Assembly: GCA_003220535.1 (NCBI GenBank)
Contig: QHSU01000057.1
Coordinates: 20,411-84,410, forward strand
DNA length: 64,000 nucleotides
Source of the DNA: Candidatus Rokuibacteriota bacterium
GTDB taxonomy: Bacteria; Methylomirabilota; Methylomirabilia; Rokubacteriales; CSP1-6
Direction of reading: 5' to 3'
Positions 60,456 to 63,453 of this stretch are shown here, in pieces. Below the pieces are notes generated by a model. It ran no database searches. It was not told where the DNA came from and saw only the letters and a program-made list of their open reading frames with translations. Position 1 is the first letter of the stretch. Each line of letters opens with the position of its first letter. The position numbers and the translations under genes were made by a program.

Positions 60456-62168
60456 CTAGCGGGGCCCGAGGTCGCGCTCGGCGTCGGCGAGCAGGCGCTC
60501 GAAGGATGAGGGCAGCTCGATCGGGCGGCCGACAACGCCGGGGCTGTAGCCCTGCATCCAGTAGCTGTTGGTCGGGTGGCCGCCACCGGCCACGACGATC
60601 ACGAAGTTGTCGGGGCTGGCGGTGATCGGCCACGGGTCCAGGGCGAGGCTCTCGCGCGTCACCTTGCTCGCATCGATCTCGATCCACGCCGGACATCCCG
60701 CGCGACGGAGCTCTGCGACCGGGATCCTCGAATGCTCCCAGAGGAACTCACGGATCGATGCCTTGGTCCACCCGAGCCCGGCCATCGTCTGCGCCACCAC
60801 TCCCGGGATCATCAGGATGCCCGGCGTTCCCCGCTCGTAGCCGGCGAGCCCGGGCATGTTGGGCACGCGCATGAAATCGGCCATACGGTGCATGCCCTGG
60901 AGCGCGTCTTCCTCGGGCGTCTCCTTCTTGGCGCCGCGCCGCCGGATGTTGGTGACCCCATTCGCGAAGGCGAACGAGATCGAGCTTGTGCCCGGCTCGA
61001 AGCCGTGACGCTCGGCGCCGTGCGGCGTCCAGCCGGAGGGTAGATTCGCCTCGTCCTCGGCGAAGACCACGTTCGTGTAGCGCATGCCACCGTAGTTCGC
61101 CATGGTGCCGATGCCGGGCAGGGCGCCGCCGAGGTTCTGCTGCAACAGGCGCAGCGCTCGGCCGATGCTCGCGCCCGCCGGCCGCTGCGGATCCGGGCCA
61201 AGGCAGCCGAAGCCGGCATTCAGCCGGATCTGGGCGCCGATCGGCCCGTTGACGATCACCACCGGAAAGGCGCTGCCCGACGCGGCCTGCAGCTGCTCGC
61301 TCCCGGACTCGGCGTCGAGGAAGGCGCTCACGGCAGCCACGAGCACCGGCACGTACTCGGGCCGCCCGCCCGCCATCGCCAGCGCGATGGCGCATGACTC
61401 GACCGTGGTCACGCCGCCCCGCGGCGGAAAAGTGCCGAGCCCGCGTCCGCGCGGCTGCGCGGCGCCGCCCAGGATCCAGTCCACTCGTTCCCGCGTCGGG
61501 GGCCAGAGCGGCAGGCCATCACCCCAGCGGTTGGCGAGCATCAGATGATTCGCGCGGGCGAAGGCGTCCTCGACACTCGTGCCCTGCACGTGGACCATCG
61601 GCGCCCCGCTCACGCCATCGCCGGCAAAGGCCGAGCGCCACCGCGTCAGGCCGTCGTAGAACTCACGCTTGCGCACCTCCATTGGAGAGATGTCGCTGCC
61701 CGGCAGGAACATCTCGATGGGAAAGGTGACCATCGCCGCGTCCGGCGCCAACCCGACTCCAGCGACGGCGTTCGTCATGACCCCCACGAAATCCTCGCGG
61801 GTCAGCGTGACCGTCGGGATTCCCCGTGCTTCGAGCCTAGCGGCCGCCCGGCCGCATGCAGTGGCGCAGGACCCTCAGGCAGCGTTGCCGATGATGACGG
61901 CGTCGACCCCGCTCTCCTTGACGAGCGCCGCCGTCTCCTCCGAGCCGATCACGGCGTTGCCCTGGGGGAAAGCGTCGATCGGCAGCACCTCGATGCCCGG
62001 GAAGTCCACCTCGAGCAGGGCCTTCAGACGGGGGAGCATGCGGTAGGCCTGCCACTGCTCGTTGCTGACGAAGCCGACGCGCTTGCCCTCGAGGGTGGCG
62101 ATGCGCGGCGCGTGCGGCTGCTTCACTTCGATGGCGCCGGACGGGTCGTGGAACTCGAGGTTCACCAT
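60456..62168 (-). CDS. Candidate selenoprotein: UGSC-family redox domain (Sec at codon 98, TGA 61877-61875) fused in-frame to an uncharacterised module of about 370 aa
   Basis: ORFs 61875..62330 and 60456..61787 share one frame and are separated only by this TGA. The context is ...DAVIIGNAA-TGA-GSCATACGRAAARLEARGIPTV.... AGGAGG lies 7 nt before ATG 62168, and a hairpin lies 20 nt after the TGA. Confidence 0.55.
61840..61855 (-). promoter_or_regulatory. SECIS-candidate stem-loop (6-bp GC stem, GGGC loop) downstream of the in-frame TGA
   Basis: The mRNA sense reads GCGGCC-GGGC-GGCCGC. The loop begins 25 nt after the UGA and starts with G. Confidence 0.35.
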
Positions 62169-62223: not shown

Positions 62224-63453
62224 TCATCCATCGGCGACGCCCTTCGCGGGCCGGGTCGAGGCGGCCGTCGATTGGACGCGAGCCGGGCGCTGATGGGGCA
62301 AGCCGAGCGCCACGAGAATGCCCAGGGCATTGCCGCCGGCGGCGATCAGGATCGCGGATCCGTAGCCCTGAGTCAGGTCGAACAGGTAGCCGGCGGTGAT
62401 TGGCAGGATGATGGCGGCGGCGCACCATGCGAGGTAGATCCGGCTGGCAATCCGGCCGTACAGCGCACGTCTCCAGTACACGGCCACCGCGGCCGCGGTG
62501 ACGCCGGAGATCACCCCGTAGCCCATCCCCACGAGCGCCAGTGCCAGGACCGATACGCCGGGGCCGGGCCACAGCGTCAGCGCCACGTTGCCGGCGAGTG
62601 CGACGGCGTGCGCGCCGGCCGCGACCGCAGGAATGGTCAGCCAGTCGACCATCCACCCGCCTCCCAAGCGTGCGACGGCGATCGTGCCGGCGATGAAGGT
62701 CGTGCCGTAGACGGCGAGCGAGGTCGCGCCACCATAGGCCGCGATGATGCCGGCGGCCTGACTGAGCACCATCAGCCCAGCGGACGCCGCCAGGAAGAAG
62801 ACGATCCACAGTCGCCAGAACACGGGCCGGCGTCGTTCTCCCTCGTCAGGCGCGATGCTCGCGGCGGCCGCCGCCAGCGTGACGCCGGATTGCGCGATCA
62901 GCCACGCGCTGATCGAGCCGGTGACGGCCAGGACCGTGGCGAGGCCCCCGAGCGTGGCGCGCACGCCGAACTCGCCGATGGACCACCCGAAGAGGGGCGC
63001 GGCGATCATCGCGCCGGCCGGATACAGCCCGACGATGTAGCCGTTCACCAGACCGTGGCGCCTCGTCACGGCGAGGTTCACCGTTTGCTGCGCGAGGATG
63101 TAAGCAGCGCCACCACCGGCGCCGAACAACACTCCGTACCCCACGGCCAGCTGGGCGAGACCGCCCGCCGTCGCGGCAACCGCGATGCCCAGCGCGCTCG
63201 CGGCCGCACAGGCCAGCACCAGTGCCGTGGTCGACGCGAGGCCGAAGAAGTGAGGCGCCAGAAGCATGCCGGCGCCGAATCCGCCGGATGCAAGGGCGAA
63301 GACGAGCGCGAGATCGGCCCGGCTCAGCCCGAGCAGCGCTTCCAGCGGCTTCAAGAACACGCTGAACGCGTAGAGCGACCCGAGCGGGGCATTGAGCACG
63401 GTGGCGGCCGCGACGGCGCGCCACGCGCTCGGCCTGACGTCAGGCTCGTTCAC
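62224..63453 (-). CDS. MFS transporter (oxalate/formate-antiporter-like subfamily)
   Basis: 409 aa with 12 TM segments. The N-terminus ...NAPLGSLYAFSVFLKPLE... is typical of OFA-type MFS. It has a GTG start. The stop lies 55 nt upstream of the UGSC gene start. Confidence 0.8.
   Translation of the reverse strand: MNEPDVRPSAWRAVAAATVLNAPLGSLYAFSVFLKPLEALLGLSRADLALVFALASGGFGAGMLLAPHFFGLASTTALVLACAAASALGIAVAATAGGLAQLAVGYGVLFGAGGGAAYILAQQTVNLAVTRRHGLVNGYIVGLYPAGAMIAAPLFGWSIGEFGVRATLGGLATVLAVTGSISAWLIAQSGVTLAAAAASIAPDEGERRRPVFWRLWIVFFLAASAGLMVLSQAAGIIAAYGGATSLAVYGTTFIAGTIAVARLGGGWMVDWLTIPAVAAGAHAVALAGNVALTLWPGPGVSVLALALVGMGYGVISGVTAAAVAVYWRRALYGRIASRIYLAWCAAAIILPITAGYLFDLTQGYGSAILIAAGGNALGILVALGLPHQRPARVQSTAASTRPAKGVADG

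Follow-up and report, generated by a model that had tools for sequence, protein, structure and literature searches.

Selenoprotein gene and candidate hairpin at the locus

We analysed a 64,000-nucleotide (nt) stretch of the genome of a Candidatus Rokuibacteriota bacterium (assembly GCA_003220535.1, contig QHSU01000057.1, positions 20,411 to 84,410; hereafter the window), which carries a UGSC-family gene and, just downstream of an in-frame UGA of this gene, a small hairpin that is a candidate bacterial selenocysteine insertion sequence (bSECIS). The whole gene spans 60456..62168 on the minus strand, with its ATG at 62168 and its stop codon at 60458-60456, and is predicted to encode 570 amino acids including the initiator Met and one selenocysteine (Sec, U). 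The frame is open throughout when TGA is translated as U. The UGA, read directly from the window sequence at 61877-61875 of the minus strand, provides the U of an AA-U-G-S-C motif and corresponds to residue 97 of the protein P0001, which begins one codon later than the gene, or to residue 98 with the initiator Met. The mRNA 3' of the UGA reads GGG UCC UGC GCC ACU GCA U-GCGGCC-GGGC-GGCCGC-UAGG, preceded by GGC AAC GCU GCC and followed by CUC GAA GCA CGG GGA AUC CCG. Specifically, a 19-nt spacer (61856..61874), which holds a possible 3-base-pair (bp) mini-helix, leads from the UGA to the hairpin base. The apical stem-loop (61840..61855, minus strand) is composed of the 5' arm GCGGCC (61855-61850), the loop GGGC (61849-61846) and the 3' arm GGCCGC (61845-61840), and encodes the peptide Cys-Gly-Arg-Ala-Ala-Ala. 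The first loop base lies 25 nt after the UGA, or 24 nt if the loop is counted as 6 nt. A sequence-only reading of this DNA had described a perfect 6-bp stem with a 4-nt GGGC loop at this distance, and the sequence confirms it.

The bSECIS model of bSECISearch (Zhang and Gladyshev 2005, summarised in PMC13188914) describes an upper stem of 4-16 bp capped by a loop of 3-9 nt, a G within the first two loop positions followed mostly by G or U, 16-37 nt between UGA and loop, and a minimum free energy (MFE) of -7.5 kcal/mol or lower. The hairpin agrees with all four constraints, including the loop distance and leading G for which the sequence-only reading had claimed agreement. Besides the spacing given above, it has a 6-bp stem with a 4-nt loop (5 bp with 6 nt in the orthologue consensus), the G-leading loop GGGC (GGUC or C-GUGC-A/U in orthologues), and an energy of -11.7 kcal/mol for the 16-nt hairpin alone, the betaproteobacterial version reaching -8.1 kcal/mol. 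Additionally, the gene context and the host fit the model: the UGA aligns with Cys in homologues, the hairpin is kept together with the UGA, and selA, selB, selC (tRNA-Sec) and selD are all present in the assembly. An Rfam scan of 61600-62100 at E values up to 10 returned opposite-strand noise matches only and no SECIS family.

The N-terminal part of the protein is a UGSC-family domain with the UGSC redox motif (61716..62150, minus strand; residues 6-150 of P0001), which scores 83.7 bits with Pfam PF24696 (UGSC; gathering score 25); the motif is AA-U-G-S-C here and C-G-S-C in Cys forms. The NCBIfam equivalog profile NF041046 gives 52.3 bits against a cut-off of 125, and judged by these scores the gene is a long-form relative and no equivalog of that model. 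The C-terminal region of about 420 amino acids matches no Pfam family at E values up to 10 and has no PDB relative. The public gene calls contain a 440-amino-acid C-terminal piece named 'hypothetical protein' (window 60456-61787, minus strand), and more than 100 close relatives in a large protein collection, nearly all of those present, are likewise called as 440-amino-acid 'hypothetical protein' fragments. This pattern indicates that gene callers end their prediction with the UGA and resume from an internal Met, and that the selenoprotein is systematically mis-annotated. Provided that the UGA is a Sec codon, the publicly called or half-called open reading frames (ORFs) are therefore one 570-amino-acid selenoprotein.

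To collect homologous loci, we searched 61 related genomes and scanned the GTDB species genomes. The aligned codon is TGA in all 107 of the 107 loci of the first collection; a second scan added 37 TGA loci, making 144 in total including overlaps between the scans. The orthologues, at 63-95% amino-acid identity, come from metagenome-assembled genomes (MAGs) labelled Rokubacteria, Burkholderiales/Betaproteobacteria, Syntrophales and Desulfobacter. In more than 140 loci, spread over several phyla, the reading frame runs on through the TGA and is conserved, which argues against a reading in which the TGA is a true stop, the locus holds two genes or a pseudogene, and the hairpin sequence is a DNA-level protein-binding site or repeat. 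That reading could draw on the public callers, which annotate the 440-amino-acid downstream ORF only, and on the sequence GCGGCCN4GGCCGC, which is a perfect DNA palindrome with 14 copies genome-wide. However, the TGA position aligns with Cys in full-length homologues, the defining motif of the N-terminal Pfam UGSC domain includes the U, and UGSC is a recognised selenoprotein family (PMC2398784); moreover, hairpins of other sequence, which are not palindromic equivalents, stand at the same place in the paralogues. We regard a true stop at this position as extremely improbable.

Some orthologue MAGs bear the labels Nitrosotalea, Streptomyces, Bordetella parapertussis or Chitinophaga pinensis (L056, L073, L081, L099, L100 and others), which are unlikely given this gene and its GC content; the probable cause is mis-binning or the wrong labelling of bins. 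One further orthologue (L027/L066, G011:C24:429293-430849) has two in-frame TGAs, and its match ends at residue 519; this orthologue may contain another recoding site, or else a frameshift or an error of assembly.

Conservation of the stem and its loss in Cys forms

Pair counts were made on a gap-free alignment of 76 distinct 72-nt orthologue segments, numbered from the UGA. The pairs 23-38, 24-37, 25-36 and 27-34 are invariant in 76/76 segments, and pair 26-35 is G-C in 70 and G-U in 6; the latter is the sole change in the stem, arises from an Ala-to-Val replacement and keeps the pairing. The sixth pair, 28-33 (C-G), is limited to 26 Rokubacteria-type sequences. The conserved element is GCGGC-N6-GCCGC, with the loops C-GGGC-G, C-GGUC-G or C-GUGC-A/U, and the RNAalifold consensus gives the identical 5-bp hairpin. 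Sec-containing orthologues place the hairpin at the identical site, and not at the non-equivalent position that the sequence-only reading had named as evidence against its proposal.

The strongest single evidence for a role of the hairpin comes from the wobble sites. We aligned the codons of 81 distinct full-length orthologue genes and calculated third-position entropy in columns whose amino acid is conserved in at least 90%. The 141 conserved four-fold degenerate columns have a median entropy of 1.17 bits, and two of them, Gly105 and Ala108, show zero variation. Zero variation was likewise found in two of the 73 two-fold degenerate columns (median 0.75 bits), namely the UGA and Cys104, and in none of the 55 Arg/Leu/Ser columns (median 1.01 bits). 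Apart from the UGA, no synonymous site of the 569-codon gene other than C104, G105 and A108 is invariant, and the wobble bases of these three (nt 24, 27 and 36) all lie within the stem. The wobble positions around them vary: Arg106 has G in 28 genes and U in 53, Ala107, at the loop or closing position, has G in 24, A in 48 and U in 5, and Ala109, whose wobble is the first base past the stem, has U in 47, C in 25 and A in 9. Codon bias cannot make this pattern, because only the stem-pairing wobble sites are invariant and the neighbouring Ala and Arg codons vary.

Homologues in which Sec is replaced by Cys behave differently. Three full-length proteins of 575-576 amino acids, 65% identical to the query, carry CGSC in place of UGSC. 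From the DNA of the Cys proteins and a genome scan seeded with one of them, we found 12 genes with TGC (Cys), which represent one alphaproteobacterial clade plus one Variovorax-labelled contig. All 12 have only 1-3 of the 5 stem pairs left and have lost the hairpin; Leu replaces Cys104, codon 105 is GGA, GGC, GCG or GCC, and codon 108 is GCC or GCG. The same scan returned 37 TGA genes, all of which (37/37) retain 5/5 pairs, down to 55% identity. This contrast between Cys and TGA forms indicates that the hairpin is kept where the UGA needs recoding and decays elsewhere. Together, the comparative data show nucleotide-level selection on the hairpin that is tied to the presence of the UGA.

These results bear on the reading that the hairpin is a chance product of GC-rich Cys-Gly-Arg-Ala-Ala-Ala codons without an RNA role, Sec being inserted via something else. 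Taken alone, the hairpin is only marginally above chance and is weak evidence. Over 96 nt, the MFE (-39.8 kcal/mol) does not differ from the average of dinucleotide-shuffled sequences (z = 0.21), and the GCGGCCN4GGCCGC palindrome occurs once in the window versus 0.08 expected, with at least one copy in 7/100 shuffles. When 8,310 TGA triplets were sampled from the 7.2-Mb genome, 4.6% had a perfect stem of 6 bp or more behind them, with loop and spacing as the model allows, and 14.8% had one of 5 bp or more. GGC, GCC and UGC are also plausibly preferred codons in a high-GC genome. The significance of the hairpin therefore derives from the comparative data only and not from its single-sequence fold. 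In these data the two invariant columns among the 141 four-fold ones both fall in the stem, with neighbours varying even in the lower-GC betaproteobacterial genes. Furthermore, the Cys forms keep RAAA and change Cys104-Gly105 to Leu-Gly or Leu-Ala; these codons are variable there, and the stem no longer pairs. A chance origin is, in our judgement, very unlikely.

Hairpins of the UGSC paralogues

The genome contains seven UGSC-type in-frame TGA sites, and each of the six non-focal sites (C39:71465, C137:9694, C137:12948, C1:93879, C139:21295 and C108:80340) has its own hairpin on the 3' side. Across 58 distinct paralogue UGA sites from this genome and its relatives, whose proteins share 28-36% amino-acid identity with the focal protein, a hairpin of at least 6 bp within the model window was found at 86%, versus 18.6% of 290 same-gene control windows. 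The paralogue hairpins include GUCGUGG-AGUNU-CCACGAC, CGCCCGC-CGUGNU-GCGGGCG, and CGGC-GGUC-GCCG with a bulge. In the commonest class (38 distinct sequences), 92.1% of alignment cells are paired and two-sided changes occur at 5/9 pairs, including swaps of G-C to A-U, G-C to C-G and U-A to G-U; the observed covariation was reached in 0/500 shuffles, and all slid registers scored far lower. Owing to these paralogue data, a hairpin right after the U-G-S-C codons can be considered a family trait with covariation.

Related Rokubacteria genomes contain up to 18 matches to the protein. With the six further sites of this genome, these matches point to a lineage in which UGSC selenoproteins have strongly expanded. 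The C-terminal domain also occurs as a stand-alone copy without a stop codon (C1:92629-93555, plus strand), which lies just upstream of the UGSC-type TGA at C1:93879 (plus strand); the two modules appear there as neighbours in the order opposite to the fusion, with provisional ORF boundaries.

Additional and overlapping structures

The sequence-only reading had also pointed out a second small hairpin, CGGG-GAAU-CCCG, and had found no obvious lower stem. The second hairpin does exist (61815..61826, minus strand) but is not conserved: 57.9% of alignment cells are paired, and pair 53-62 forms in 1/76 sequences, the focal one only. We rejected it as a functional element and consider it a chance by-product of the Arg/Gln-Gly-Ile-Pro codons, because the residual GG....CC pairing reflects codon positions one and two of Gly (GGN) and Pro (CCN), which are fixed. 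A lower stem that pairs GGGUCCUG with CAGGG..CCC is present in some MFE folds; it was also rejected, being dropped by RNAalifold while its partner codons change. No lower stem is conserved, and the core of the element is 5 bp of GC, extended to 6 bp in the Rokubacteria clade. Within the spacer, RNAalifold predicts the mini-helix between UGC (61868-61866) and GCA (61859-61857), nt 10-12 with 19-21, with 97.8% paired; it varies on one side only (U-A in 46, U-G in 26) and is weak evidence.

This mini-helix is part of one version of a further reading, namely that the true SECIS is a different or larger overlapping fold, either GCAUG-CGGC-CGUGC or a composite of the mini-helix and the GC hairpin. 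The former has its loop 20 nt after the UGA in betaproteobacterial orthologues, and the MFE fold of one betaproteobacterial sequence differs from the simple hairpin. A simple hairpin scan found this fold, with CGGC as loop and 5-7 stem pairs counting G-U, in 39/77 distinct orthologues, and RNAalifold adds the well-paired 3-bp helix at nt 10-21. However, the alternative stem has a central A-G or G-G mismatch in all Rokubacteria sequences, the focal one included, and leaves the invariant A108 wobble base C36 unexplained, since C36 falls outside it. GCGGC/GCCGC is the only pairing that stays intact in 100% of the Sec forms. We consider an overlapping fold unlikely, and assign to it most of the probability that remains beside the simple hairpin.

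Selenocysteine machinery of the genome

As demonstrated by profile matches, selA (592.9 bits) and selB (354.8 bits, full-length match; C107:45484-47367) are adjacent on contig C107, and tRNA-Sec lies about 3 kb from them, detected by ARAGORN with the anticodon tca and by Rfam RF01852 at 69.8 bits. The selD gene (334.9 bits; C1:110596-111537, plus strand) contains one in-frame TGA at C1:110626. An 8-bp hairpin, CUCCUGGA-GAUC-UCCAGGAG, comes next, and 21 nt separate this UGA from its loop. The selD gene itself is thus predicted to be a selenoprotein gene and to offer an independent SECIS example in the genome. The MAG has an estimated completeness of 93.8% and a contamination of 8.15%. Together, these homology matches show that the full Sec machinery is encoded in the genome.

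Genomic neighbourhood

Upstream of the UGSC gene, and on its strand, is a major facilitator superfamily (MFS) transporter gene (window 62224-63453, minus strand) that ends 55 nt away. Two Cys-form loci, which stem from unrelated metagenomes, have an MFS_1/Sugar_tr gene immediately downstream (L168:2359-2731 and L169:2307-2728). The linkage is therefore conserved despite the differing gene order, and may hint at an imported substrate.

Assignment of the hairpin and its proposed function

The hairpin occupies the same position in every Sec orthologue, has invariant wobble sites in its stem and is lost in the Cys forms, and the proposal of the sequence-only reading that it is a SECIS is borne out by these comparisons. 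We conclude that the hairpin at 61855-61840 (minus strand) is in all likelihood the bSECIS for the UGA at 61877-61875. It is very probably the expected, ordinary cis-element of a known UGSC selenoprotein family and no new kind of element.

Several observations weigh against this assignment. Single-sequence thermodynamics is uninformative in such GC-rich DNA, as the z-score of 0.21 indicates, and for a typical betaproteobacterial orthologue the MFE of the first 48 nt from the UGA belongs to a different structure. No compensatory covariation was found among the 76 orthologues, in which no two-sided changes occur and the shuffle controls are not exceeded. This is because the stem is invariant; the structure is therefore deduced from constraint and not from pair swaps. 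As for the check by folding and covariation that the sequence-only reading had suggested, a conserved stem-loop exists, and strict covariation is seen only in the differently placed hairpins of the paralogues. In addition, the contrast between Sec and Cys forms reflects essentially one transition, there being one Cys clade, and serves as corroboration and not as a statistic. The contig with selA, selB and tRNA-Sec (C107) and the window contig (C111) are joined by binning only. The loop also starts 24-25 nt after the UGA, as against mostly 17-19 nt in the paralogues and 21 nt in selD of this genome. In the SECIS of Escherichia coli fdhF, the hairpin begins 11 nt after the UGA, a distance that is needed there, a U bulges out of the upper stem, and the loop is GGUC; the base of the focal hairpin, in contrast, lies 19 nt from the UGA, its stem is without a bulged U, and its GGGC loop is without a GU dinucleotide.

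Under the bSECIS assignment, a mechanism can be proposed from the established bacterial pathway. Once the ribosome reaches the UGA, the hairpin would stand just outside the mRNA entry channel. By analogy, SelB carrying GTP and Sec-tRNA(Sec) would bind the apical loop and the top of the GC stem via its C-terminal domain, with the UGA in the A site or close to it, the bound loop being G-rich (GGGC here, GGUC or CGUGCA in relatives). SelB would thereby bring Sec-tRNA(Sec) to the A site and outcompete release factor 2, after which the ribosome would melt and translate the hairpin and continue into the C-terminal domain. Both SelB binding and actual Sec insertion are inferred here from the known pathway.

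A more far-reaching suggestion is that the focal clade possesses an unusually small, frozen and portable SECIS, a 5-bp GCGGC/GCCGC clamp 19 nt from the UGA. The clamp recurs with identical letters in MAGs that bear the labels Rokubacteria, Burkholderiales, Syntrophales and Desulfobacter; we nevertheless hold this suggestion to be doubtful. If true, a minimal element would be accepted by the SelB of several phyla and would travel with its gene by horizontal transfer, the supposed strictness of SECIS spacing would be relaxed, and a compact tag for recombinant selenoprotein expression might become possible. As for biology, little is new: both the UGSC selenoproteins and the fusion with an unnamed domain were already known in 2008. 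Of mild interest are the minimal GC clamp across phyla labels, the 6-8 nt shift relative to the paralogues and a selenoprotein missed by annotation. For GC-rich genomes, wobble invariance confined to the stem combined with loss of the stem in Cys homologues provides a reusable bSECIS test.

Comparison with known SECIS elements and UGSC proteins

Compared with the bSECIS consensus, the focal element is the same kind of intragenic stem-loop 3' of a Sec-UGA, with a small loop and a leading G; it differs in being very short, with 5-6 GC pairs and without a conserved lower stem or bulge. With E. coli fdhF and fdnG it shares the logic of its location and a G-rich tetraloop closed by C-G, and some Rokubacteria orthologues have GGUC, the loop of fdhF. 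The focal element would thus work like the fdhF type by analogy, but belongs outside that subtype because its spacer is 19 nt, its stem is perfect with no bulge and its loop is GGGC.

The hairpins of the paralogues, as described above, are likewise located just 3' of the U-G-S/T-C codons, in genes that join the UGSC domain to the same type of C-terminal domain as here; presumably they use the same SelB. The focal hairpin sequence, however, is unrelated to those of its own paralogues: their stems are 7-10 bp long and covary, whereas the focal stem is frozen. The stems span nt 23-38 in the focal element and nt 14-34 in the paralogues, so that the two regions overlap, the paralogue loops being 6-8 nt nearer to the UGA. 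The focal sequence cannot fold into a hairpin in the register that the paralogues use (nt 14-34).

Regarding the protein family, PMC2398784 presents UGSC-containing proteins as a major environmental selenoprotein family since the Global Ocean Sampling (GOS) analysis, with 255 Sec versus 21 Cys forms, and the same work (Zhang and Gladyshev 2008) describes a fusion of UGSC to an unnamed domain, 'UGSC/Unknown_1'; the family is also included in a 2026 review (PMC13188914). The C-terminal domain of the focal protein may correspond to Unknown_1. The focal gene and its homologues share with the UGSC family the motif, the domain, the fusion to a large unnamed domain, and the far greater number of Sec than of Cys forms.

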